Shown here piece by piece: positions 1-60,940 of a stretch of DNA of 64,000 bases (position 1 is its first letter; each line of letters begins with the position of its first letter). The stretch spans positions 7,130,001 through 7,194,000 of the forward strand of contig CM059453.1 of assembly GCA_030390025.1 (NCBI GenBank), read 5' to 3'. Below the pieces are notes generated by a model that did not search any database, was not told the origin of the DNA, and saw only the letters and a list, made by a program, of their open reading frames with translations. This DNA comes from Squalus acanthias. Its lineage: Eukaryota. The translations under genes were made by a program, and so were the position numbers.

Positions 1-2244
1 CAGGAGGTTAAAGGCTGCAACAGCCGCTGTGTCTAGTGGGAATGTGCTGGCCTTCAGTAGAGGTTGGATTCGGTCCGAGAAGTTAGGAATCCATTTAGCA
101 TAGTATGCAAACAGGCCGAGGGCTCGGCGCAAGGAGGCTGGATTCTTAGGTGGCGGGAGTTCTTGGAGTGGGCGAAGCCTTTCAGGGTCAGGTTTAATGA
201 TGCCATTGCCCACACAATAGCCAAGGATGTTGATGGTTGGTTGTGACTCAATGGATTTAGCCGCATTTAATGTCAAATTACGGTGCTGGAGTGCATCCCA
301 AAATCGTTGGAGATTGGCGTCATGTTCCCGCTGATTGCGACCTGCGACAGTAATATTGTCCAGATAAGGAAACGTATCCTTTAAGTCTACCTGTTTGACC
401 AGGTCATCCATTGCTCGCTGGAAGACAGCCACTCCATTAGTGACCCCAAAGGGGAGGCGACGAAATTGATACAGCCGTCCATTGGCTTCAAAGGCCGTAT
501 ACTGCTTGTCTGAGACCTTCAAGGGTACCTGATGATAGGCACTTTTCAGATCATATGTTGAGAACACCGTGTACTCAGCCAGTTTATTAACCATATCATC
601 GATGCGCGGCAATGGGTATGCGTCCAAGTCCGTATATTGATTGATGGTCTGTGAATAGTCAATGCACAGCCGTTTCTTGTGAGGTTGTAGAGGGTTCTTA
701 ACAATAACGACCTGGGCGCGCCATGGCGACGAACAAGGCTCGATGATATCCTCTGCTAAAAACCGAGAAATCTCAGCCGCAATAAAAGACTGGTCTTCCT
801 GACTGAAACGTCGTGACTTTGTTATAATCGGTTTGCATCGAGGAGGGATACTGGTAAACAGTGAGGGTTCATCCAGTGAAGCTGCTGACAATGCACAGAA
901 CGGTAATCGAGGTCGTATATTAGAAATAGTGAGTTCAGGTTTGGATCCGCCGAACTCAATGGTGAGCTTCTTATGCTGCTTTTGAAAATCTAGCCCTAAG
1001 ATAAGATCACTACATAAGTCCTTGAGCACCGAAAGCCGGGTGGAGGGAAACCTGTGACCATTAAGTGTTATTTCAACCATACAAAAGCCAGAAATTCTGG
1101 TATTAAGTGATGACTGAGCCATCGCAATTGCCTGGTCCGATGGGAAAACATGTAGCTTTAACTCTGCAACAATCTGTTCCCTAATGAAACTATCAGTGCT
1201 ACCTGAGTCAATTAAGGCATCTAAAGTATGTCCATTAATTGATGCTTTTGTAGCTGCATGGAATAGGTTCTGAGGACAAGCAGCTGTAATTGGTGTCGTT
1301 GCACAAAGAGTGGCTGAAACTCTAGGTGTGTTTCTTCGAGAGAAAACCCGAGAGGAAGCACGATAGATTTTAGCCGGAACATCTTGATAGGCCCTTACCG
1401 GGGCAGTTCGGTAGGACTTAGCTTGATAAGCCCTCGTAGAGGCTCTTGATAGGCAAACCTTTGCAAAATGACCCTTTTTGTTGCAATGACTGCAAAACGC
1501 ATTGCGAGCAGGGCAGAATTTCCGAGGGTGAAACTCATCACCACAAAAGAAGCATTTCTTAGATTGCCAAGAGGCTGCCACAGTGGGATCATCATCCTCT
1601 TCATCAGTGAAGTCATCAGATTGATCGTCAGGGATAAAGTCCTCCCTAATAGAGTTCACCTGTGGCCTCTTAAATTGCCTGACTGTAGTTAAGGCAGCAG
1701 ACCGAGGTCTGGGCACTGTATAAAGGTCTGCATTTCTTTTTGCCAGATCTAGAGAGCAAGCCATGTCATAAGCTCTCTGAAGCTCAAGTGTCTTACTTTC
1801 CAGTAGACGCTGGCGTATAAATGGGGAGGCAAGCCCGCAGATGAAAGCATCACGGATCATTTCTTCACGGTACAGCTCAGCTGAGGCCGCCTGAAAGTTA
1901 CAGTCCATACTAAGTCTGCGAAGCTCTTGGAGGAATTTATCAATGGATTCCTCCGGCCCTTGTTGGGCTGTAGCTAGTAGATGTCTGGCATAGACCTCAT
2001 TCGCTGTCTTAGTATATAGTCTTTTAAGCGTCCGAATTGCCTCCTCGTAACTGCCCCATTCCTCGACATACTGAAATACATTCGGGGTGACACAGTTGAT
2101 GAGTATCCGCAATTTTGAGTCATCATCAGCCTTGCAATATTCGAGAAAATTGTCAAACGTGCGATACCAGTGTTTCCACACCTTACCGGCTGCTGGGGTG
2201 TTTGGGTCCAAGTCAAGACGCGATGGTTTAAGGATGTTTTCCAT
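1..2244 (-). CDS. Gypsy LTR retrotransposon 1 gag-pol polyprotein, running off the left edge
   Basis: Starts MENILKPSRLDLDPNTPAAGKVWKHWYRTFDNF. Contains a zinc knuckle (CFFCGDEFHPRKFC...CSHCNKKGHFAKVC), protease LIDSG and RT PYLDNI. Spot-checked codons at 2244, 1560, 366 and 3 are in one frame, and the ORF track reports no stop-terminated ORF in that frame. Confidence 0.9.
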   Translation of the reverse strand, partial: MENILKPSRLDLDPNTPAAGKVWKHWYRTFDNFLEYCKADDDSKLRILINCVTPNVFQYVEEWGSYEEAIRTLKRLYTKTANEVYARHLLATAQQGPEESIDKFLQELRRLSMDCNFQAASAELYREEMIRDAFICGLASPFIRQRLLESKTLELQRAYDMACSLDLAKRNADLYTVPRPRSAALTTVRQFKRPQVNSIREDFIPDDQSDDFTDEEDDDPTVAASWQSKKCFFCGDEFHPRKFCPARNAFCSHCNKKGHFAKVCLSRASTRAYQAKSYRTAPVRAYQDVPAKIYRASSRVFSRRNTPRVSATLCATTPITAACPQNLFHAATKASINGHTLDALIDSGSTDSFIREQIVAELKLHVFPSDQAIAMAQSSLNTRISGFCMVEITLNGHRFPSTRLSVLKDLCSDLILGLDFQKQHKKLTIEFGGSKPELTISNIRPRLPFCALSAASLDEPSLFTSIPPRCKPIITKSRRFSQEDQSFIAAEISRFLAEDIIEPCSSPWRAQVVIVKNPLQPHKKRLCIDYSQTINQYTDLDAYPLPRIDDMVNKLAEYTVFSTYDLKSAYHQVPLKVSDKQYTAFEANGRLYQFRRLPFGVTNGVAVFQRAMDDLVKQVDLKDTFPYLDNITVAGRNQREHDANLQRFWDALQHRNLTLNAAKSIESQPTINILGYCVGNGIIKPDPERLRPLQELPPPKNPASLRRALGLFAYYAKWIPNFSDRIQPLLKASTFPLDTAAVAAFNLL

Positions 2245-2322
2245 GATGGGAGATTCCCTGGATCCTTAGTTCCGAGTTCGTCCAAAAAGTTTGAGTGCGA
2301 AGATTTTCAAAGTTGATTAAAT

Positions 2323-2516
2323 TGTCGTAAGAATGAGCCTTACGCGTGGTGAACTTAAAGTAAGCTTTAATCAACTAAAAAGGTGCTACATACAAAAGAG
2401 GTCTTACTCTATGCCTCTCCAGGATCCAACTGATCAGCCCAGTATTTATCCTGGACTAATCACAGGAAGTGATGTAATAAAGTTCGAGTCACAGGAAGCT
2501 GTATTGTGTTACCACA
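2323..2516 (-). mobile_element. 5' LTR of Gypsy element 1 (194 bp, TG...CA)
   Basis: On the minus strand it reads TGTGGTAAC...CTTACGACA with GATAAATA and ATTAAA, upstream of gag. It interrupts a CR1 RT fragment that resumes at 2517. Confidence 0.8.
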
Positions 2517-9485: not shown

Positions 9486-9860
9486 AGGACAAATTCCTTC
9501 CTTTGGCTAATATCAGTGTATACAAATCTTAGGTGGGATGTTGGGTGATCTACCTCATGGACACTGTTATCCCCTTGGAACTCGTTTTGTTCATCTTCGG
9601 GGTCGGAGAAGAATTTTGCAGATTACTGAATTGGCCGAGTGCTGTTTACATATGTTTGCCTCCCGCGAGAGGTTGCAATGTGGTGAGAGGGAATACTGTC
9701 GTCATGGTGCATTGTTGCGTCTTGACTGTTTTGGATAGGCTCATTGACCAGTCGATTATTTCCTGTTCGTCTTTTCAGACGACTGTATGTTCCAAAGCTC
9801 AGAATGAGTCCCTCCCTGAGTGAGAACAATGAAAAATGATCAGAGAAGCGAGAAAGAGGG

Positions 9861-12800
9861 TGTCATAAATCGCAAGTAACAACTCAGGAAGTACTACTGT
9901 GTGGCCAGCTGGGGCGCCGTCCAGGGAGTATAAATACTCAGGCATGGGCCCACCTTGGGCAGAGACAATCTGGAAACAGGAAGCTAGTGACTGCTAACTA
10001 GACCTCCATGTTTTGTTACAAGTTGATTAAAGCCTTGCTTTATGTTCAAGTGCGTAGTGAGTCTTTATTACGTCAATTTAATCAACTTGATATCGTCTCC
10101 ACGCTTTGGGTGATTCGGAACAACCAGCTGCAACTCGAACCACAGAAGGGAACTTGGGCAAGAAACTGATCCATCATGGAAAAACTCCTTAGACCCGCTC
10201 GTCTCGACCTGGACCCGAATGCACCTGCGGCAGCAAAGGTATGGAAGCATTGGTTTCGTACCTTTAGCAACTTTCTTGAAGAATGTGGGGCGGATGTCCC
10301 TAATAAGTTACGAATGCTTATCAACTACGTGTCTCCTCATGTGTATGATTATATTGAGGACTGTATAGACTATGACACTGCTATCGAAATCTTACAGCAG
10401 CTATATGTCAAGTCCCCAAATGAAATCATTGCTTGACACCTACTGGCCACAACTCGGCAGCAGCCTGGGGAATCACTCGATGAATTTCTCCAGAAACTTC
10501 GCAGGCTCAGCAAGGATTGTAACCTTAAAGCAGTTTCAGCTGAACAGTATCAAGAGGAACTAATCCGCGATTCCTTTATCAATGGAATCACGTCCCCTTT
10601 TATACGTCAGCGCCTGCTGGAAAATAAAACGCTCAATTTACGGGCTGCTTATGACCAGGCGTGTTCCTTGGACTTGGCCAAGAAAAATGCAGACACTTAT
10701 CTCCCACCACGTGCACGGGCGGCGGCTATCTCCTTTAATGAGTCTTTCGGTAGGTCTCGGGCGGATGCCCCCACTGATGTTGACTCTACTCTAACAGACG
10801 ACGACCCTACCCTAGAGGCCTTCGCTGATGACGACCCCGCCCTAGCAGCATCTTGGCAATCAGGAAGAAAGTGTTTCTTTTGTGGAGGGGCGGCCATCAC
10901 AGAAAATTTTGCCCGGCTCGTAATGTGACCTGCAATCATTGCAGCAAGAAAGGACACTTTTCCAAGTTATGCCAGTCACGGGCCTCTGCTAACAAGAAAG
11001 GCCGCTCCTCTAAAGTATACCGGTCGAGAGCTCCTGTTAGCTTCACAGCTGCTATCTATGGAGCTGCTCCTCCCCCAGGAACCACTGTTAAGGCTGCAGT
11101 TGCCGAAGGGAAAATTGCCCCTCCTCCCATCACGGCTGTTTTTCCCCAAAGTTTGTCCCATGCAGCCACGAAGGTTTCAGTAAATGGGCACACTCTAAGT
11201 GCGCTAATCGACTCCTGCAGCTCTGACAGCTTCATTAGTAAGCGGGCTGTCAACACGTTAAAACTGCACATTTATCCCTCGGACAGGGAGATTGCAATGG
11301 CTCTGACGACTCTGACCACCAATTCTTCTGGCTTCTGTCTGGTCAACCTCATCCTCAACGGCCGCACGTATCTCTCCACCCGGCTCGGAGTACTCACAAA
11401 CTTATGCAGCGATGTGCTTCTGGGACAGAACTTCCAGAAGCAGCACAAGAAGATCACTTTTGAGTTTGGAGGGTCAAGGCCGGAGCTTACCATTTCTAAG
11501 GTGCCGTTTTGTGCACTCTCGGCGGCCTTACTCGGTGAACCCTCCCTGTTTGCCAATCTTCCCCCCCGCTGTAAACCCATAGCCACCAAATCGCGGCGCT
11601 TTAGCCAAGATGATCGAGCGTTTATTGAGGCGGAAATCTCTCGCCTTTTAGTCGACGGTATTATCGAGCAATGTTCATCTCCCTGGCGGGCTCAGGTCGT
11701 CATCGTGAGGAATCCCTTAAAACAAAATAAAAAACGTCTGTGTATCGATTATTCGCAGACTATTAATCTATATACCGATCTGGATGCCTACCCGCTGCCA
11801 CGCATAGATGACATGGTCAACAACCTTGCCAAATACAAGGTATTCTCGACCTTCGATTTAAAAAGCGCGTACCATCAGGTGCCACTGCAAGACTCCGACA
11901 AGAAGTATACGGCCTTTGAGGCCAATGGTCGGCTTTTCCAGTTTCACCGCCTTCCATTCGGGGTCACCAATGGGGTGGCCGTCTTCCAACGGGCCATGGA
12001 TGGCCTAGTCCGGCAAGAGAACTTGACGGATACCTTTCCGTATTTAGACAATATCACTATTGCCGGCCATGATCAAAAGGAGCATGACGCCAATCTTCAG
12101 AGATTTTTTGACGCACTCCGCCGTCGCCACTTAACATTAAACGAATCCAAATCGGTGAAGTCGGTGCCATCGGTGAACATTCTTGGCTGCTGGGTGGGCA
12201 ACGGTGTTATTAAACCAGACCCAGAGCGACTTCGTCCACTTCAGGAGCTCCCTCCCCCGACGAACCTCGGCTCTCTTCGTCGGGCACTTGGCATGTTTGC
12301 TTATTACGCAAAATGGATACCACACTTCTCCGATAAAATACAGCCCCTGCTCCATGCAAAGTCTTTTCCATTGGAAGCTATGGCTATTTCTGCCTTCAAC
12401 CTCCTCAAACGACAGCTGGAGAAAGCCACGCTTCGCTCCATTGACTAAAATCTTCCTTTTGTGGTCGAATGCGATGCATCGGAGGTGGCGATCTCCGCTA
12501 CCTTGAATCAAGGTGGCCGACCCGTGGCATTCCTATCCAGAACCTTGCAGGGTAGCGAGCTCCATTACCCCCCCCCCCCGTCGAGAAGGAGGCTACGGCC
12601 ATCATCGAGGCTGTACGCCAATGGGGTCATTTTCTTGCTCGGCGTCATTTTACGCTTATAACTGACCAGCGCTCTGTGGCCTTCATGTTGGATAACCGGA
12701 GGCGCACGAAAATCAAAAATAATAAAATTCAACTCTGGAGGATGGAGCTGGCTGCCTTTGGATATACTATCTGTTACCGACCCGGCAAACAGAACGTGGC

Positions 12801-14374
12801 CCCAGATACCTTCACACGGGCATTTTGCTCCTCAATGTCAACGTCGACTCTGGCGGATTTGCATATGGACTTATGCCATCCTGGTGTGACCCGCATGTTG
12901 CACATTGTGCGCTCCAAAAATCTACCATTTTCAACCGAGGACGTAAAGAAAACATGCTCCTCCTGTAGGATTTGTGCAGAATTGAAACCACAATTCTTTC
13001 GCCCATCAGATGGCTTACTCATACATGCAATGCAGCCTATGCAGAGGCTCAGCATAGACTTTAAAGGGCCATTGCCTTCGTCGACAAGGAACACCTACCT
13101 ACTTACGATGGTGGACGAGTATTCACGCTTTCCCTTCGCCTTCCCCTGCCCTAATATGCTTACCTCTACAGTAATTAAATGCCTCGATCAGGTCTTTTCC
13201 CTTTGCGGGACGGCCAATTTTATCCACACTGATCGGGGTCCCTCCTTTATGTCGAGTGAACTTAAAAGTTATCTCTCCCAACGGGGAATCGCCTCAAGTA
13301 GGACGACACCATATCACCCAATCGGTAACGGACAGGTTGAACGATACAATGCCATCATCTGGAACGCTGTCCGTCTGGCACTAAGGTCACGCAACCTGCC
13401 GGACCAGCAGTGGGAAACGGTGCTCCCCGACGCGTTACACTCTATCAGGTCTCTTCTCTCCACATCTACTAATGTCACGCCTCATGAGCGATTCTTCAAA
13501 TTCCGGCGTCGCTCTACACATGGGACGTCTCTACCGTCATGGTTGGTGGCTCCAGGCCCGGTACTACTCCGGAGGTTCGTCCGGTCTGCCAAAAACGACC
13601 CTCTCCTTGACGAGGTGGAGTTAACGGAGTTAAACCCCACGTATGCGCACGTACGTTACCCTGATGGCCGGGAGACCACCGTCTCGCTCCGAGATCTGGC
13701 TCCCTGCCCAACCGGTCACACGGGCCCGAATGATGAAGGATCCCCCGACAATGATATCAACACTCCGCACCCCTATGAAAATGACGCCCCGCCTGGGACA
13801 TCGGGGGATCTGCCGGCAACGCTACCGGATCAACTCAGGGAGCTGGACGCTCCCCGTAGGATGGCCACCCGAAACCAGGACGCCGGACAATCTCCAGCCA
13901 CGACCCGGGATGAGGCCAGCTCAGCACCTGTGGGGACCCGCACCCGGAGTCATGATATTCCCAGTCCTCCACAGGATGATCAAGATGACGCGGACTCTAC
14001 TGACTTACCGGTACGGGCCAAGCGACCCAGGGACCAGGACATGGTCCGGGGAGACGTGCCTTCCAGTCACAAGCAGAGAGCTAAACGTCTGCGGCTATTT
14101 CTGGTCCGCTTAGTCCGTTAAAGGAAGACTGGACTTCCAAACCTGTTAGGGAGGAAGAATGTCATAAATCGCAAGTAACAACTCAGGAAGTACTACTGGG
14201 TGGCCAGCTGGGGCGCCGTCCAGGGAGTATAAATACTCAGGCATGGGCCCACCTTGGGCAGAGACAATCTGGAAACAGGAAGCTAGTGACTGCTAACTAG
14301 ACCTCCATGTTTTGTTACAAGTTGATTAAAGCCTTGCTTTATGTTCAAGTGCGTAGTGAGTCTTTATTACGTCA
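9861..14374 (+). mobile_element. Full-length Gypsy LTR retrotransposon 2 (4514 bp)
   Basis: 215-bp LTRs at 9861-10075 and 14160-14374 (TG...CA, one mismatch T9900/G14199). 5-bp TSD GAGGG at 9856-9860 and 14375-14379. Polypurine tract AGGGAGGAAGAA at 14148-14159. Order gag-PR-RT-RH-IN. Confidence 0.97.
10176..14121 (+). pseudogene. Disrupted gag-pol of Gypsy element 2
   Basis: Gag, zinc knuckle, LIDSC protease, YLDN RT, RNase H ECDAS and integrase (HPG..CxxC, IDF/TDRG/VER). Broken by TGA at 10434, a 1-nt deletion near 10890, TAA at 12446 and a poly-C frameshift near 12568-12579. Confidence 0.92.
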
Positions 14375-14452
14375 GAGGGTTATTCTGATCGAGGAAGCGC
14401 CCTCATACCCGTATCACTTGCTCCCTCTCTTATCCACTCCTTTCTGTTACAG

Positions 14453-22010: not shown

Positions 22011-25000
22011 AGAAAAAATAAGTAATTTGCTCAGGAAATTGTAATCGATTTCAGATTTAGAATTGTGAAAATGGAAAAGAGTGAGTTGTTCAAACTGCAC
22101 GAGGCTCATCCGAGGTGCTTTACTGAGATCTATAAGGTAAGGTATCGATTGATCACTAACCCCTTCATGGTAGCAGTGATACGGTCCTCTTATCTTCCAA
22201 CTAATCTGAACTAATTCTGCTTCTTAATCTGATTCCAAATGCGCCCAGTTTGAAGCTGGACTGTGTTCGAATGAGGTTCCCGTTTGTATCCAGGATTTGA
22301 TCCCACTGATCAATTTGCAGGCATTTCACCCGTAGATAAAAATATCCACATTGTTTCCAGCAGCATTAACACACTAATCTGAAAGCTCACGACACACGTC
22401 AAAGTTCTAGCACTAAAGTCAGAATCTTCATAAACACGTCATTGTAGCAACTCGGATCTCAATGAGTTAATTTCAGCAGATTTCATCTCGCTGGACTGTT
22501 AATTTAAGCAGCTGAAGTCACTTCTGAAAATGGCACTTTAAAAACTTGAAACTGTTTACTGATAAACTCTTTCGTATCTTTTGACATTTCAGATACGTGT
22601 TGTGTCCCCGAACTTCTGAAGGTGATCAACCCACACGTCTGCAGACAACGGCTACAGGACTAACCACAGCTTCACACTTAAAACACTCGCAGTTCAAGGG
22701 CTGATAAATAGCTCAGTGTTTGGGAGTTGTTTGTCGGGGCTTCTAAAGCTGGTGGAGAGTCCAGGTTAGATATTGCCATCTGAAGTAACATATACCCTAC
22801 AATTAGTGTCAGCACCGATTGTAAGAAAATTAGCTGAGCGGGTGAATGATTATTGGTCGCGTGGACGCTGCAACTTGCCCGTGTGCATTTCACTCTTACT
22901 GACTCTCATTCACTTATTTAATATCATTGAGGGAGTGGAAAAACCACGAGGCACTCCCGAGAAGGCACTGTTTGCTTTCCGGAATTCCCAAACCCAGAGA
23001 TAGTCCAGAGAAATTGGCATTGCACCGGGACTGCATGTTCAATTTAGTGCGTATATATCCTAGAATGTTAAAAACAGTCACATTCAGAAAGTCACATGGT
23101 GTATTCCTGCTGGACAATTATCATCCTCTGTACCGATTGAACATTCCTCAGTTCTTATATTGTGTTTCCATTCACTGCCCGATGATATTTTATATGTTGT
23201 AACAGCCTTGTACTAACTGGTTTGTAAGCCAGTGATCCTCATCCTGCAATGTGGGCCTCTGTTGTCTCGTCAGGGCTTCTTCTTTCTGGCTTTACTAAAC
23301 AGTTTGATTACCTTCCGTTTTCAATTCTGATTAATTCTTTACAAAAAATGTTCACTGATATCTTCATCCAACAGATAGCGACTGACCTGTTTTGCCTTGT
23401 CAACGGTTCCTGGTGCTCTACAAGGCTTTGGTTGCCCGGGATGTTCAGGAGCCCTGATCTATCTGTCGCGGCTGCCGAGCCCCTCTTCTGGTAAGCTTCA
23501 GAAAAAGCCGGAGTATTAAATATCTTTCCTGTGTGGAGAAGTCCAATTAGTATGAATAGAACGCTCAACATATTGTAATGGGAGAGCGCCAGAAAAATAA
23601 GCAATTTCCTCAAGAAAGTGTTACGGATTTCAGATTTAGAATTGTGAAAATGGAAAAGCGTGAGATGTTCAAACTGCACGAGGTTCATCCGAGGAGCTTT
23701 ACTGAGATCTATAAGGTAAGGTAGCGATTGATCACTTACCCCTTCATGGTAGCAGTGATACGGTCCTCTTATCTTCCAACTAATCTGAACTGATTCTGCT
23801 TCATAATCTGATTCCAAATGCGCCCAGTTTGAAGCTGGACTGTGTGCGAAAGAGGTTCCCGTATGGATCCAGGATTTGAGCCCAATGATCAATTTGCAGG
23901 CATTTCTTACTGTAGATAAATATATCCACATTGTTTCCAGCAGCATTGACAGTCCAATCTAAATGCTCAATCACACCTCACAGTTCTAGCACTGAAGTCA
24001 GAATCTTCATAAACCCGTCATTGTAGCAACTCGGGTCTCAATGAGTTAATTTCAGCAGATTTCATCTCGCTGCAGTGTCAGTATAAACAGCTGAAGTCAC
24101 TTTTAAAAATGGCACTTTACCCACTTGAAACTGTTTACTGATAAACTCCTTTGTATCGTTTGACATTTCAGATACGTGTTGTGTCCACGAACTACTGAAG
24201 GTGATCAACCCACATGTCTGCAGACAACGGCTACAGGACTAACCACAGCTTCACACTTCAAACACTCACAGTGCAAGGGCTGATAAATAGCTCAGTGTGT
24301 GGGAGTTGTGAGTCGGGGCTTCTAAAGCTGGTGGAGAGACGATTTTAGATATTGCAATCTAAAGTACCATATACCCTACAATTATTGTCAGCACCGATTG
24401 TAAGACAATTAGTTGAGCGGGTGAATGACTATTGGTCGCGTGGACGCTGCAACTTGCCCGTAGCATTTCACTCTCACTGACTCTCATTCACTTATAAATA
24501 TCCTTGAGGGAGTGGAATAACCACGAGGCACACCCGCGAAGGCACTGTTTGCTTTCCGGAATTCCCAATCCCAGAGATAGTCCAGAGAAATTGGCATTGC
24601 ACCGGGACTGCATGTTCAATTTAGTGCGTGTATATCCTGGAATGTTAAAAACAGTCACATTCAGAAAGTCACATGGTGTGTTCCTGCTGGACAATTATCA
24701 TCCTCTGTACCGAGTGCACATTCCTCAGTTCCTATATTGTATTTCCATTCACTGCCCGATGATATGTAATATGTTATAACAGCCTTGTACTAACTGGTTT
24801 GTAAGCCAGTGATCCCCATCCTGTAATGTGGGCCTCTGTTGTCTCGTCAGGGCTTCTTCTTTCTCGCTTTACAAAACAGTTTGACAATCTTTGGTTTTCA
24901 ATTCTGCTGTATTCTTCTCCAAAATATTCACTGATATCTTCACCCCACAGACAGCAACTGACCTGTTTTGCCTTTTCAACAGTTCCGGGTGTTCTACAAG

Positions 25001-25898
25001 GCTTTGTGTGCCCGGGATGTTCAAGAGCCCTGATTTATCAGTCGCGGCTGCCGAGCCCCTCTCATTGTGTGCGTTGGAAAAACCCAGATAATTAAATATC
25101 TTTCCTGTGTGAAGAAGTCCAATTAGTATGAATAGAACGCTCAACATATTGTAATGGGGGAGCGGCAGAAAAATAAGCAATTTCCTCAGGAAAGTATAAC
25201 GGATTTCAGATTTAGAATTGTGAAAATGGGAAAGATGAGTTGTTCAAACTGCACGAGGCTCATCCGAGGTGCTTTACTGAGATCTATAAGCTAAGGTAGC
25301 GATTGATCACTAACCCCTTCATTGTAGCAGTGATACGGTCCTCTTATCTTCCAACTAATCTGGACTGATTCTGCTTCTTAATCTGATTCCAATTGCGCCC
25401 AGTTTGTATTCAGGATTTCATTCCATTGATCAATCCGCAGAGATTTGTTCCCGTAGATAAAAAAAATATCCATGTTGTTTCCAGCAGCATTGGCACTTCA
25501 ATCTAAAAGATCAAGACACACCTCTCAGTTCCAGCACTAAAGTCAGAAATTTTATAATCTCGGATCTCAATGAGTTAATTTCAGCAGATTTCATCTCGCT
25601 GCAGTGTCAGTATAAACAATTGAAGTGACTTCTAAAAATGGCACTTTACCCACTTGAAACTCTTGAAAGATAAACTCTTTTGTGTCTTTTGACATTTCAG
25701 ATACGTGTTGTGCCCCCGAACTACTGAAGGTGATCAACCCACACGTCTGCAGACAACGGCTGCAGAGCTAACCACAGCTTCACACTTCAAAGACTCGCAG
25801 TTCAAGGGCTGTTAAATAGCTCCGTGTGTGGGAGTTGGGAGTCGGGGCGTCGAAAGCTGGTGGAGAGGCTATTTTAGATATTGCAATCTAAAGTGCCA
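22011..25898. repeat. Tandem repeat of an about 1.58-kb unit (about 2.5 copies)
   Basis: AGAAAAATAAG(C/T)AATTT(C/G)CTCA recurs at about 22011, 23591 and 25168 with colinear internal sequence. The ORF pair 22927/24504 has offset 1577. Confidence 0.92.
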
Positions 25899-26307: not shown

Positions 26308-26703
26308 GTATAATATTCATTTTAATAATTAATATAGAAGCGATTTCCATTGTGTGGCAAATCAACACGTTCATTGTTTGTGGAGATAGTACATGTTTAG
26401 TTGGAAATTTACAAATGACCGATTTGCCCATTTAATGTATATTTCATTCGAAAAATTATCTTATATTTTATAAGATTGATCTAATATTTACTCTATGGTT
26501 TATCGACTTTCAATGGAATACTTAATGGAATCTAAAGAGTTTTAATGAAACTTTCACGAGTTTTAATGGATGTACTAATGAATTTGTTTGTGGATGTTTA
26601 TTAAAGGTTAAATTAACAGTATTTAACTTGACGATCAGGGTATGTTTAAATTGCGATATTATTGCGGATTTCATTGGGTTTTTAATTTCTGTTTTTTCAC
26701 CAG

Positions 26704-27084
26704 TTGTCCATAGTTCACGATGGTCTCTGAAGGTGCCGTGGAAGGTCTCGGCGGTAAACGGGACATGTGCAGAAATCCCGTGTACATTTGATTATCCCGC
26801 CTATGGCCGCAGTCCACAGGGTATGTGGTTAAAGGGGGGTCCTAAACCTGGTACCTCAGGGGTGTCGATTATCTGTGATTCCCGGAATTCAGACAACGTG
26901 CCCTTGAACTACAGAGGGCGAGCTCAGTTCACCGGCGAATTTGAAAAGAAACAATGTTCCTTACAGTTAAAGGACATCAGGAAGATCGATGAAGGTGTTT
27001 ATTATTTCAAATTGGAGATCATCAATGCCCAGAATAAGAGAGAAGGATATTCTACCGAATCTAAGGTCACTCTTTCTATTTTAG
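26704..27084 (+). CDS. Gene B exon 2: Siglec-type V-set Ig domain
   Basis: caccag/...TTAG/gtaggt, 381 nt. WSLKVPWKVSAVNGTCAEIPCTFDYP...W...YRGRAQFTG...CSLQLKDIRKIDEGVYYFKLE shows the CD22/CD33/MAG cysteine pattern (GxCxxIPCxF, CSL). Confidence 0.92.
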
Positions 27085-28256
27085 GTAGGTTTTTTGATCT
27101 GTTCCTTATGTAGTTTATATTCCATCGCGCCAGTGCCATTTAATTTTAGCATAAAATGGAAAGATTTCGTGTTACTCTTGCCCCATGTCACAGGCTACAC
27201 CGGCAGGACTGGTCCATTGTGTAATACCCAGGTGTGTGTTATATTTCGACTTGAACTGAAATGGGGCGCTGGCCTTCATAGTAACTTACAGAAGCACCCT
27301 CTGTTGATCAGTCAGTAAGTGCAATACTAGATGGCATTACCATCATTGGTGTCACCATTGACCAGAAACGTATTTGAACCAGCCACATCAATACTGTGGC
27401 AAAAAGAGCAGGTCAGAGGCTGGGTATTCTGTAGCGAGTGTCTCACCTCCTGACTCGCAAAGCCTTTCCACCATCAACAAGGCACAAGTCAGGAGTGTGA
27501 TGGAATACTCTCCACTTGCCTGGATGAGTGCAGCACCAACAACACTCAAGAAGCTCGACGCCATGCAGGACAAAGCAGCCCGCCTGATTGGCACCCCATC
27601 CACCACCTTAGACATTCACTCCTCCACCACCAGCGTACCATGGCTGCAGTGTCTACCATCTACAAGATGCACTGCAGCAACTCGCCAAGGCTTCTTCGGC
27701 AGCACCTCCCAAACAGGCGACCTCTTCCACCTCGAAGGACAAGGGCAGCAGGCGCATGGGAACACCACCATCTCCAAGTTCCCCTCCAAGTTACACACCA
27801 TTCTGACTTGGAAATATATCGCCGAACTTTCGTCGTCGCTGGGTCAAATCCATGGAACTGCCTCCCTAACAGCACTGTGGGAGTACCTTCAGCACATGGA
27901 CTGCAGCGGTTGAAGAAGGTGGCTCAGCACCTCCTTCTCAAGGGCAATTAGGAATGGGTAATAAATGCTGGCCTTGTCAGCGACGCTCACATTCCATGAA
28001 TCAATAAAAGAAAAGACCGGTTTGTCAAAATTCAATCCCTCAAAGATATGGTTAATTAAATCAAGATTTGTACTTCTAATGGACAGGTCAGAGGACATGG
28101 TCAATACTTAGGAGGGATTGCTTCAATCTGATCATTTACAGGCCCCCATATCATAGGGTCGTGTTTCAAATTCTTTCGGCTAAATCAACTTTCACACACT
28201 TGGCCATTATTTAAATTAAAATCTACTGTAACGCGAATGTCCTTCTCTCGTTACAT

Positions 28257-40354: not shown

Positions 40355-41960
40355 CAGAAAGGCTTGCATTTCTATAGCGCCTTTCAGGACATCCCAAAGT
40401 TCTTTACAGCCAATTAAGTACTTTTGAAGTGTGGTCACTGTTGTAATGTAGGAAATGTGGCAGCCAGTATGCGCACAGCAAGCTCCCAAAAACCCCAATG
40501 TGATAATGACCAGATCGTCTGTTTCTGTTATGTTGACAGAGGGATAAATATTGGGCCCAAGACACCGGGGAGAACTCCCCCTGCTCATCCTCGAAATAGT
40601 GGCCTTGGGATCGTTTACGTCCACCTGAGAGAGCAGACGGTTTAATGGCTCCTCTGAAACACGGTACCTCCAACAGTGCGGCGCTCCCTCAGCACTGCCC
40701 CTAAGACCGTGCAGCGCTCCCTCAGTACTGCCCCTCCGACAGTGCAGCACTCCCTCAGTACCGCTCCTCCGACAGTGCGGCGCTCCCTCAGTACTGCCCC
40801 TCCGACAGTGCAGCGCTCCCTCAGTACTGCCCCTCCGACAGTGCGGCGCTCCCTCAGTACAACCCCTCAGACATTGCAGCAGTCCCTCATTATTGCCCCT
40901 CCGACAGAGTAGTGCTTCCCCAGCACTGCCCCTCCGACAATGCAGCGCTTCCTCAGTACTGCCCCTCCGACAGTGCAGCAATCCCTCAGAACTGCCCCCC
41001 CGAAAGTGCAGCGCTCCCTCATTACTGCCCCTCCGACAGTGTGGCACCTACTCAGTACAACCCCTCCGACAGTGCAGCGCTCCCTGAGTACTGCCCCTCC
41101 GACGGTGCGGCGCTCCCTCAGGACTGTCCCTCCGACAGTGCGGCACTCTCTCAGTACTGCCCCTCCGACAGTGCAGCACTCCCTCAGAACTGCCCCTCCA
41201 ACAGTGCAGTGCTCCCTCAGTACTGCCATTCCGACAGTGCAGCGCTCCCTCAGTACTGCCCCTTCGACAGTGCAGCGCTTCCTCAGTACTGCCCCTCCGA
41301 CAGTGCGGCGCTCCCTCAGTACTGCGCCTCCGACAGTGCAGCGCTCCCTCAGTACTGCCCCTCCGACAGTGCGGCGCTCCCTCAGTACTGCCCCTCCGAC
41401 AGTGCAGCGCTCCCTCAGTACTGCCCCTCTGACAGTGCAGCGCTCCCTCAGTACTGCCCCTCCGACAGTGCAGCACTCCCTCAGAACTGCCCCTCCAACA
41501 GTGCAGTGCTCCCTCAGTACTGCCATTTCGGCATTGCAGCGCCCCCTCAGTACTGCCCCTCCGACAGTGCAGCGCTTCCTCAGTACTGCCCCTCCGACAG
41601 TGCGGCGCTCCCTCAGTACTGCCCCTCCGACAGTGCAGCGCTCCCTCAGTACTGCCCCTCCGACAGTACGGCGCTCCCTCAGTACTGCCCCTCCGACAGT
41701 GCAGCGCTCCCTCAGTACTGCCCGTCCGACAGTGCAGCGCTCCCTCAGTACTGCCCCTCCGACAGTGCAGCGCTCCCTCAGTACTGCCCCTCCGACAGTG
41801 CGGCGCTCCCTCAGTACTGCCCCTCCGACAGTGCGGCACTCCCTCAGTACTGCCCCTCTGACAGTGCAGCGCTCCCTCAGTACTGCCCCTCTGACAGTGC
41901 AGCGCTCCCTCAGTACTGCACTGGAGTGTCAGCCTAGATTTTTGTGCTCAAGTCTCTGGA
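40355..41960 (-). mobile_element. Deu-domain SINE with an internal minisatellite expansion
   Basis: Colinear with 36605-37295 on both sides of the array. Confidence 0.8.
40674..41925. repeat. 33-bp minisatellite, about 38 copies
   Basis: Unit CAGTGCAGCGCTCCCTCAGTACTGCCCCTCCGA. Confidence 0.97.
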
Positions 41961-57329: not shown

Positions 57330-60300
57330 TGACCAGGGGAAGGCACCAGCAGCCAGGTTCACGCCACCATGGCAGGCTCTGCTGCACAGCAGGGCGGGAA
57401 AAAGAATGGTAGAGCTATAGTGATAGGGGACTCAATTGTCAGGGGAATAGACAGGAGTTTCTGTGGACGCAACCGAGATTCCAGGATGGTATGTTCCCTC
57501 CCTGGTGCAAGTGTCAAGGATGTCTCGGAGCGACTGTAGAACATTCTGGAAAGGGAGGGTGAAGGGCCAGCTGTCGTGGTGCATGTAGGTACCAACGATA
57601 TAGGTAAAAATAGGGAAGAGGTCCCACTAGCAGAATTAGGGAGCTAGGAGCTAAATTGAAAAGTAGGACCTCAAAGATGGCAATCTCTGGGTTGCTACCA
57701 GTGCCACGTGCTAATCAGAGTAGCATGAACAGGATATCGAGATTAAACACTTGGCTTGAGCAGTGGTGCAGGAGGGAGGGATTCAAATACCTGAGGCACT
57801 GGAACCAGTTCTGGGGGAAGTGGACCTGTACAAAAGGGACGGTCTGCACTTCGGCAGGACAGGAACAGATGTCCTTGGGGTAATGTTTGCTAAGGCAGTT
57901 CGGGAGGATTTAAACTAATATGGCAGGGGAATGGGAACCTATGTAGCGAAACAGGGGGAAGTAATATGCAGTCAGAAACAAATGTTAGAAGGGTGAGAAA
58001 CAATAAGGGAAATCCGAGTAAACAAAGGCAAGAAACACAAAGGGCCATACTAAATCATAAGTCTAAATGGACAAAGGGTGTTAATAAAACAAGCCTAAAG
58101 GCTCTGTGTCTTAATGCAAGGAGTATCCGTAATAAGGTGGATGAATTGACTGTGCAAATTCATGTTAACGGATATAATGTGATTGGGATTACAGAGACGT
58201 GGCTCCAGAATAATCAAGGCTGGGAACTGAATATCCAGGGGTATTCAACATTCAGGAAGGATAGAATAAAAGGAAAAGGGGGTGGGGTAGCATTGCTAGT
58301 TAAAAAGGAGATTAATGCTATAGCTAGGAAGGACATTAGCTTGGAGGATGTGGAATCAATATGGGTTGAGCTGCAGAACACCAAAGGGCAGAAAACGTTA
58401 GTGGGGGTTGTGTACAGACCTCCAAACAGTAGTAGTGAGGTGGGGGAGGGTATGAAACAGGAAATCAGAGGTGCATGCAAAAAAGGCGCGGCAGTTATCA
58501 TGGGTGACTTTAATATGCATACAGATTGGGCTACTGAAACTGGAACCAATACGGAGGAGGAGGATTTCCTGGAGTGTTTAAGAGATGGTTTACTAAACCA
58601 ATATGTTGAGGAACCAACTCGAGGGGAGGCCATCCTGGACTGGATGTTGTTTAATGAGGAAGGACTAATCAGCAATCTTGTGGTGCGAGGCCCCTTGGGG
58701 AAGAGTGACCATAGTATGGTGGAGTTCTACATTAGGATGGAGAAAGAAACAGTTAATTCAGTGACCATGGTCCAGAACTTAAATAAGGGCAACTTTGAGG
58801 GTATGAGGCGTGAATTGGCGAGGTTAGATTGGCAAGCGATATTTAATGGGTTATCAGTGGAAGGGCAATGGCAGATATTTAGAGATCGCATGGATGAACT
58901 ACAGCAATTGTACATCCCTGTCTGGCATAAAAATAAAAAAGGGAAGGTGGCTCAACAATGGCTAACAAGGGAAATCAGGGATAGTATTAAATGCGAGGAA
59001 ATGGAATACAAATTGGACAGAAGTAGCAGCAAACCCGGGGACTGGGAGAACTTTAAAACTCAGCAGAGGAGGGCGAAGGGTTTGATTAGGGCAGGGAAAA
59101 AAAATATGAAAGGAAGCTTGCGGAGAACATTTAAACGGATTGCAAAAGCTTCTATAAATATGTAAAAAGAAAGAGGTTAGTAAAAACAAACGTAGGTCCC
59201 CTGCTGTCAGAAACAGGGGAAGTCATAATGGGGAACAAAGAAATGGCAGATCAATTGAACAAGTACTTTGGTTTGGTGTTTACTGTGGAGGACGCAAACA
59301 GCCTTCCGGAAATAAAAGAGATCAAATGATCTGGTAAGAGGGAGGAGCTGAGGGAAATCGTTATCAGTCGTTAAAAGGTGTTGGGGAAATTGAGGGGACT
59401 GAAGGCTGATAACTCCCCAGGGCCTGATGGTCTGCATCCCAGAGTACTTTAGGAGGTGTCCTTGGAAATAGTGGATGCATTGACGATCATTTTCCAACAT
59501 TCCTTAGACTCCGGATCAGTTGCGAAGGAGTGGAGGTTGGCTAATGTAACCCCTCTTTTTAAGAAAGGAGGGAGGGAGAAAGCAAGGAATTATAGACCGG
59601 TCAGCCTGACATCGGTGGTGGGTAAAATGATGGAACCAATTATTAAAGATGTCGTAACAGATCTTTCTAAAGTGGCTACATGATAGGTCCAAGTCAGCAT
59701 GGATTTCTGAAAGGGAAATCATGCTTGACAAATCTTCTGGAATTTTTTGAGGATGTTTCCAATAGGGTGGACGGGGGGGAACCAGTAGATGTGGTGTATT
59801 TGGACTTTCAGAAAGCCTTCGACAAGGTCCCACACAAGAGATTGGTGTGCAAAGTTAAAGCACATGGGATTGGGGGTAATGTGTTGACGTGGATTGAGAA
59901 CTGGTTGGCACACAGGAAACAAAGAGTAGGAGTAAATGGGTACTTTTCAGAATGGCAGGCAGTGACCAGCGGGGTACCGCACGGTTCGGTGCTGGGGCCC
60001 CAGCTGTTTACATTATATAGTAATGATTTGGACGAAGGGATTAATTGTAATATCTCCAAATTGGGAGGCAGTGTGAACAATGAGGTCGATGCTAGGAGGC
60101 TACAGAGTGACTTGGACAGGTTGGATGAATGGGCAAATGTATGGCAGATGAAGTACAATGTGGATAAATGTGAGGTTATCCACTTTGGTGGTACAAATAG
60201 GGAGGCAGACTATTACCTGAATGGTGGCAGATTAGGTGCAACGAGACCTGGGCGTCACCGTACATCAGTCACTGAAGGTGGGAAGGCAAGTGCAGCAGGC

Positions 60301-60940
60301 AGTCAAGAACGCAATTGGCATGATGGCCTTCATAGCAAGGGGATTTGAGTACAGGAGTAGGGAGGTGATGCTACAGTTGTACAGGGCCTCGGTGAGGCCA
60401 CACCTGGAGTATTGTGTGCACTTTTGGTCTCCTAACTTGAGGAAGGACATTCTTGCTATTGAGGGAGTGCAATGAAGGTTCACTAGATTGATTCCTGGGA
60501 TGGCCAGACTGACATATCAAGAAAGACTGGATCAACTGAACTTGTATCCTCTGGAGTTCAGAAGAATGAGGGGGGATCTTATAGAGACGTTTAAAATCCT
60601 GACTGGTTTAGACAAATTAGATGCGGGCAGAATGTTTCCAATGTTAGGGAAAACTAAAACCAGTGGTCACAGTCTAAGACTCAGATGAGGAGGAACTTCT
60701 TCACCCAGAGAGTGTTGAATCTGTGGAATTCTCTACCACAGAAGGTTGTTGATGCCAGTTCGCTAAATATATTCAAAAGGGAGTTAGATATAATACTCAC
60801 AACTAGGGGGATCAAGGGGTATGGCGAGAAAGCAGGAATGGGGTACTGAGGTAGCATGTTCAGACATGAACGCATTAAATGGCGGTGCAGGCTCGAAGGA
60901 CCGAATGGTCTACTCCTTCACCTATTTTCTATGTTTCTAT
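57330..60940 (+). mobile_element. CR1 LINE, ORF1 esterase plus degraded ORF2
   Basis: GDS/HVGTND esterase, LNARSIRNK/GITETW/MGDFN/SDH endonuclease, RT motifs and TTTCTATG tail. Head-to-head with the preceding LINE. Confidence 0.95.

Follow-up and report, generated by a model that had tools for sequence, protein, structure and literature searches.

In LTR reverse transcription the primer site lies directly behind the 5' LTR. The 64,000-nt stretch of Squalus acanthias DNA analysed here, called the window (contig CM059453.1 of assembly GCA_030390025.1, forward-strand positions 7,130,001 to 7,194,000), carries two LTR retroelements in which that place holds a short stretch complementary to the element's own LTR and no TGG. 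This raises the question of what primes their minus-strand DNA. The initial annotation answered with self-priming, on the grounds that an 11-nt pairing recurred in sequence and spacing in two elements with otherwise dissimilar LTRs. We find that the self-priming signature is real and clade-wide, and that its least solid support is the identity of the 11-mer between two neighbours, which adds little alone.

Element 1 is on the minus strand, with only its 5' end in the window. The coordinates and letters first given for its pairing are exact: the plus strand reads AGTTGATTAAA at 2311-2321 and TTTAATCAACT at 2366-2376, with a spacing of 44 nt. In the sense of the element, a 5' LTR of 194 nt (2323-2516, TG...CA) ends in ...ACGACA at 2323 and is followed by a one-base spacer, A (2322), and by the primer-binding position TTTAATCAACT (2311-2321), which lacks TGG and is complementary to the LTR arm AGTTGATTAAA (2366-2376), the candidate self-primer. 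Because the element's own 3' LTR is outside the window, we infer both LTR ends, including the boundary at 2323, from element 2 with its target-site duplication (TSD) GAGGG and from the 23 TSD-defined elements (element 2 included), most of which read CA-A-TTT at the LTR end. The final six bases of the arm (2371-2366) are ATTAAA, a variant of the poly(A) signal. A small hairpin, GCTTA/TAAGT (2353-2365, minus strand), opens at the first base past the arm and represents the RCCT...AGGY hairpin of the clade. Another hairpin is predicted in U5 immediately inside the LTR end (2326-2344, minus strand), and in element 2 too; clade-wide, such a U5 hairpin was not significant (mean z -0.57; below -1.5 in 4 of 33 families). 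A putative TATA-like box, GATAAATA (2443-2450, minus strand), lies 85 nt upstream of the 3' end of the arm. The gag ATG is found at 2244, 77 nt past the first base of the primer site, and the gag-pol frame (1-2244, minus strand) stays open for 748 residues to the window edge, encoding a Gag with two CCHC knuckles (CX2CX4HX4C), a protease and an RT with the motif YLDN. In the predicted fold, 10 of the 11 duplex pairs have a pair probability of 0.85-1.0, and when the 194-nt LTR was shuffled 3,000 times with its dinucleotides preserved, a perfect complement never appeared. Rfam gave no match over positions 2200-2560 of the window, and ARAGORN found nothing.

Element 2 is complete (9861-14374, plus strand). 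It is flanked by the duplication GAGGG on the left (9856-9860) and right (14375-14379), and its 5' LTR of 215 nt (9861-10075) is identical to the 3' LTR (14160-14374) at 214 of 215 positions. A polypurine tract (14148-14159) precedes the latter. The damaged gag-pol (10176-14121) contains stops and frameshifts and encodes protease, RT, RNase H and integrase, with no chromodomain. The TG...CA LTRs, the TSD and the polypurine tract are hallmarks of Ty3/gypsy elements, and the domain order Gag-PR-RT-RH-IN is that of Ty3/gypsy LTR retrotransposons. The arm CAAGTTGATTAAA (10019-10031) pairs over 13 nt with the primer-binding position TTTAATCAACTTG (10077-10089) across a loop of 45 nt. The 11-mer of element 1 is present within this pairing (10021-10031 and 10077-10087), and a third copy, at 14320-14330 in the 3' LTR, has no complementary site behind it. 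The window contains five exact copies of the 11-mer in total, all of them inside the two retroelements.

Elsewhere, the window harbours a plus-strand LINE remnant with endonuclease and RT frames (57894-60348) and, from 2968 on, many dispersed short 3' fragments, all probably of the CR1 type. At 22014-25800, a unit of about 1.58 kb is present in three tandem copies that are 69-95% alike. At 40667-41919 a 33-nt unit is repeated in 38 tandem copies that are open in several frames on both strands; its Pfam matches (mucin-like, colipase-like) are probably compositional. A plus-strand frame at 26526-27113 with an immunoglobulin V-set/CD22-like domain probably belongs to a host receptor gene as one of its exons.

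What, then, is the shared 11-mer worth? The RTs of elements 1 and 2 are 78% identical and sisters in the RT tree (SH-aLRT 96), and their internal DNA is about 68-73% identical. Their LTRs, initially described as otherwise dissimilar, align globally with a score of 89, against a shuffled mean of 29.6 (sd 9.8, max 62, n=300). From the arm to the LTR end the two are clearly homologous; upstream of the arm the similarity is borderline (31 against 14.6, sd 8.0, max 42). Since two sister families whose LTR ends are homologous are being compared, the 11-mer is not independent evidence, and its identity between them can be plain inheritance. It is the commonest 11-mer of the clade and is carried by a third family, L007, in the set of relatives based on the best 80 of 272 confirmed loci. 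A pairing of exactly 11 nt with a 44-nt loop is correct for element 1 but does not hold as a constant. Element 2 has 13 and 45 nt, and since perfect runs vary from 5 to 19 nt and loops from 24 to 68 nt across 33 families, neither 11 nor 44 is fixed. The argument that conserved sequence and spacing imply function likewise falls, as these families have 31 different 11-mers. The conclusion drawn from it, a functional pairing and self-priming, survives on other grounds, namely covariation across families.

To collect relatives, a Gag alignment of 22 of 57 sequences was used for searching. On metagenome contigs 272 loci were confirmed, of which the best 80 were retained, and genome contigs added five more; many of the loci are sister copies. 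Together with the two window elements, these 85 loci make 87 sequences, which fall into 41 families at 80% gag DNA identity. Five sequences with less than 95 nt upstream of gag and ten without CA-N-TT(T/A) within 130 nt were dropped, leaving 72 sequences and 35 evaluable families, with six families left out. A Gag search of viral contigs found no relative. The named clade members from the Gag and RT searches come from cnidarians, crustaceans, molluscs, flukes, nematodes, insects and rays. L081-L085 are animal retrotransposons whose five contigs come from bins of bacterial genomes (GTDB MAGs), most likely misbinned host DNA. Leaders are short in many relatives, gag starting 14-50 nt after the first base of the primer site (77 and 99 nt in the window elements), and in some families gag begins right at the end of the duplex.

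Pairing with the own LTR is far from lacking in most family members. In the set based on the best 80 of 272 loci, with the first member of each family taken blind, it reached at least 11 of 13 positions in 33 of the 35 evaluable families, against 52 of 1,190 cross-family pairs. In the same best-80-of-272 set, perfect runs of at least 9 were found in 30/35 own and 43/1,190 cross-family comparisons, the own LTR was strictly the best partner in 30 of 35 families, and the 33 paired families held 31 distinct 11-mers, that of the window in three of them. RT identity to element 1, where RT is present, ranges from 42 to 78%. L054 and L075 were evaluable, yet match at 10 of 13 positions. As the CA-N-TT(T/A) anchor contains letters of the site itself, the test was repeated, blind to the motif, on elements defined by their LTR pair and TSD: with ends fixed by the TSD, 21 of 23 elements (6 families) match at 11 positions or more of 13. 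The TSD is 5 bp long in 23/23, and a tRNA-type TGG behind the LTR was found in none of these 23. A wider search of the dropped sequences detected the pairing in L008, L040 and L055 and found none in L052/L053, L064, L076/L080, L084 and L002. In L052/L053, L064 and L084, which make up three of the six families left out, 260-7,000 nt of upstream DNA showed no convincing pairing; these copies may be truncated or may form a side branch with other priming.

The anatomy of the duplex was followed in 33 families of the best-80-of-272 set, with positions counted from the inner edge and the register chosen on Watson-Crick matches. Positions 1-13 are Watson-Crick pairs in 29-33 of 33 families, positions 14-16 in 19-23, and positions 17-19 in 8-10 of 32, which is chance. 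The core duplex of the clade is 13 nt long, and its positions 5-13 show three or four pair types across families. What is conserved is the matched complementarity, the inner duplex edge ...AAA|RCC and, behind CA, the spacer of a single base (CAA in 31/33). The arm ends in AAA; its last hexamer is ATTAAA in 13 families, AATAAA in 9 and non-canonical in 11. Directly past the arm come GCCT (17 families), ACCT (6) or GCCA (3), and from the first of these bases a hairpin of at least 4 bp opens in 24 of 33 families, against a shuffle mean of 5.5 and a maximum of 11 (n=500). Among the 455 duplex cells of the first members, 436 are Watson-Crick, 3 are G-U and 16 are other combinations. The adjacent hairpin opens with G-U in 12/24 cases, in a search that allowed G-U. 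Given that G-U is nearly absent from the duplex and frequent in the hairpin beside it, the duplex looks templated, beyond what selection as an RNA structure would give. In L025, a member of a young family whose gag is 99% identical to those of its sisters, a single change is common to the two LTR arms and is compensated in the primer site; in L024 both LTRs carry an altered arm that the primer site does not match, the intermediate predicted by templating; and L043, L045 and L046 share a change in the 5' arm without a match in the primer site. Read from sequence, these few events, with one compensated copy, would fit copying of the primer into the primer site.

One host tRNA cannot serve such a site, because it lacks TGG, varies by family and tracks the own LTR. 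At the point where the minus strand starts, one base past CA, about 13 bases are complementary to an arm located 24-68 nt upstream in the same family. We place the two elements in a large and still unnamed clade of Ty3/gypsy elements that is found in animals and is non-chromoviral, and consider it likely that minus-strand DNA is primed there by an LTR-derived RNA. Towards the strict Tf1 form, in which the primer would be the 5' end of the RNA and be cut by RNase H, we lean with less assurance. In this form, the 5' end of the genomic RNA would fold back and the arm would pair with the primer site. A cut at AAA|RCC, for which the element's own RNase H is the likeliest agent, as in Tf1, would leave the arm with a 3'-OH; RNase H domains were found in intact relatives. 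We infer both the transcription start and the cut at AAA|RCC. RT would extend the arm through U5 and the remaining R and then jump to the 3' R, and plus-strand synthesis would later copy the primer, thereby writing changes of the LTR arm into the primer site. Such copying would explain why pairing is perfect despite a fast turnover of sequence. Since the arm ends in AATAAA or ATTAAA in two thirds of the families, the fold probably also hides the 5' poly(A) signal, and occlusion may well act alongside priming.

The position of the transcription start deserves a closer look. The initial annotation had the pairing begin at the A of an initiator-like TTAGTT. A purine followed by G stands at this +1 position in 17/33 families, and pairing usually extends at least two bases further upstream. 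Of 29 families, 8 have a TATA-like box, at positions that vary between -45 and -161 when counted from the arm end. Those of the window elements, 85 and 103 nt upstream of the arm end, would point to a start 50-75 nt further upstream than the arm, and L049 is the only family whose box would place the start at the arm. The TATA positions, as read here, do not support the proposed initiator. Placing the start by means of these boxes was rejected, their positions being inconsistent across families. A primer made by splicing, an idea prompted by a T-rich run and an AG in the arm, was rejected too: the unspliced pairing spans the AG and continues upstream of it, with positions 10-13 paired in 29-32 of 33 families. 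Public contigs from three runs have loose ends before 9861; contigs cannot show where transcripts start or end.

The TATA-like boxes of the two window elements, at -85 and -103, would suit a form of self-priming in which the LTR-derived primer is not the 5' end of the RNA. Transcription would then start 50-75 nt upstream, with a longer 5' piece being cut, or else just past the hexamer, which would make R very short, leave the arm only at the 3' end of the RNA and have it pair end-to-end or in trans in a dimer. Most families lack a TATA at the distance typical of Tf1, and the helices of the Tf1 'pretzel' were not found, both of which speak for this form. The extent of the complementarity does not: it fades at positions 14-16 and reaches chance by 17, whereas copying of a long primer by RT would be expected to produce longer inverted repeats, and L021, L029, L032 and L033, members of one family, keep a mismatch at position 14 with positions 1-13 perfect. 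Moreover, cutting of the 3' copy would presumably cost the R needed for strand transfer. We regard a primer of this kind as unlikely.

Alternatively, the duplex might serve solely as a switch that hides the poly(A) hexamer at the 5' end and leaves it free at the 3' end, priming being ensured by something else. In favour of this, the arm ends in ATTAAA or AATAAA in 22/33 families, 24-68 nt before the primer site, and the complement is present solely behind the 5' LTR. However, the elements would then be left without a primer site, in spite of their fixed spacer behind CA. A structural helix should also tolerate G-U pairs and a drifting register, but only 3 of 455 cells are G-U and the inner edge is fixed, and 11 of the 33 hexamers are non-canonical. 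In addition, the arm of element 2 is predicted to be largely paired in the context of the 3' LTR too, so that folding alone shows no clean switch. Occlusion as the sole role of the duplex thus appears quite improbable to us.

We give very little credence to priming by a host tRNA, a tRNA half or another small RNA, with the match to the LTR being secondary. Passages of PMC6317226 describe half-tRNA priming without TGG as known in some Ty1/copia lineages, and the variable primer-binding sites (PBSs) of Saci2 are interpreted as tRNA switching in the part of PMC12471100 that deals with them. Against such primers, each of the 31 different 11-mers in 33 families tracks its own LTR, TGG was seen in 0/23 TSD-defined elements, and the Rfam search of 2200-2560 was without a match. 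A neutral inverted repeat, common to two related elements by chance or simple inheritance, would need no selection for an 11-mer shared by sister families with homologous LTR ends, but it is refuted by the cross-family control, with 0/3,000 shuffles and matched changes in 33 families at 42-78% RT identity, and retains next to no probability.

To our knowledge, self-priming has been proven only in Tf1 of fission yeast, and within Ty3/gypsy it counts as a hallmark of Tf1/sushi chromoviruses. Our literature search, whose scope was without Repbase and most of the subscription literature, found no report of it in a non-chromoviral animal gypsy clade. If the reading proposed here is true, a second, unrelated and very widespread clade, in animals, would have it, and tRNA-free priming would either have several origins or go back further than has been assumed; hairpin priming was speculated to be ancestral in a passage of PMC3601003. 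It would also explain the failure of PBS finders on these elements, and the geometry would be a different one, with a primer overlapping the poly(A) signal and a hairpin at the cut site. Going further, and much more tentatively, we propose that an animal-wide Ty3/gypsy branch evolved self-priming apart from Tf1/sushi, using its own poly(A) signal as the primer. A single fold would hide the 5' AAUAAA/AUUAAA and present AAA|RCC, with the duplex stacked on the hairpin, for cutting; it would stay perfect because RT recopies it at each cycle; and it would do so with an RT that usually has asparagine in place of the second catalytic aspartate.

Regarding the placement of the clade, a quick RT tree of 52 rows, one per family with RT and with no Tf1 or sushi sequence included, groups 27 RT rows in a clade of their own (SH-aLRT 99, stem 1.07), apart from a 5-row group of chromovirus type (98). 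No chromodomain was detected in 6/6 proteins scanned with E up to 0.05, nor was PF00385 found among 120 listed relatives. The motif FGVTNG is present in 107 of 118 listed clade proteins. In both window elements and in intact young relatives, YxDN takes the place of the catalytic YxDD; among 118 listed relatives, 81 have YxDN, 30 YxDD and 7 neither. A literature search on this topic found no paper on YLDN in retrotransposons.

Several known groups share some of these features. Like CsRn1, Mag (A/B/C), Cigr-1 and MolGy/PolGy, the clade is non-chromoviral and has a wide range of animal hosts and short LTRs. Membership of CsRn1, compared by description in the passages of PMC2582038 on it, was rejected, as its tRNA-Trp PBS and CHCC Gag motif are absent here. 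The RT motifs of the clade had no match in the supplements of PMC2774666, PMC6238403 and PMC8556966, though these files may not contain any sequences. A tentative assignment to the Mag C-clade drew no support and was dropped. Possibly the clade is identical to one of the MolGy groups, for which the passages concerned describe no PBS. As portrayed in parts of PMC12471100 and PMC2582038, the Saci2/lennie clade of flatworm Ty3/gypsy elements resembles it in having a single Gag-Pol frame, in being non-chromoviral and in LTRs and PBSs that vary between families. Membership of Saci2 was also rejected by comparison with these descriptions: Saci2 has a 4-bp TSD and a CCCH Gag, against a 5-bp TSD (23/23) and two CCHC knuckles here. 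The TAR lineage of plant Ty1/copia elements (Houba, Osr-1) is, in the relevant passages of PMC6317226, another case outside Tf1/sushi in which self-priming is predicted from complementarity between LTR and PBS; unlike the present clade, TAR has the copia order and plant hosts.

The closest parallel in mechanism is offered by Tf1, Tf2, Tj1 and the Tf1/sushi group, Ty3/gypsy chromoviruses that prime themselves and inhabit fungi, vertebrates and non-seed plants. Both they and the clade described here lack a tRNA site, have a site past the 5' LTR that is complementary to their own LTR, and follow the Ty3/gypsy domain order. According to a passage of PMC7175516, Tf1 RNA pairs with the PBS through its first 11 bases and is cleaved by RNase H between bases 11 and 12; the primer lengths are thus similar, with 11 nt in Tf1, 11 in element 1 and 13 in the clade core. 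A copied PBS is reported on about half of Tf1 cDNA in a passage of PMC11042837. Tf1/sushi elements are presented, in the parts of bioRxiv 10.1101/2022.12.06.519325 and PMC6317226 that concern them, as chromoviruses with a chromodomain and a three-duplex pretzel. In a crude test for the side helices of this pretzel, duplex energies were alike for own and cross-family combinations (-8.3 vs -8.3 and -3.2 vs -3.1 kcal/mol). Unlike Tf1/sushi, the present clade has no chromodomain, no pretzel helices detected and a separate RT clade (in a tree without Tf1/sushi). It also differs in the hairpin right past the arm, the poly(A)-signal-like hexamer at the arm end, an RT that mostly has YxDN, and named hosts that are cnidarians, crustaceans, molluscs, flukes, nematodes, insects and rays. 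The best reading, to judge by these sequence features, is that the clade would work like Tf1/sushi and be no member of that group.
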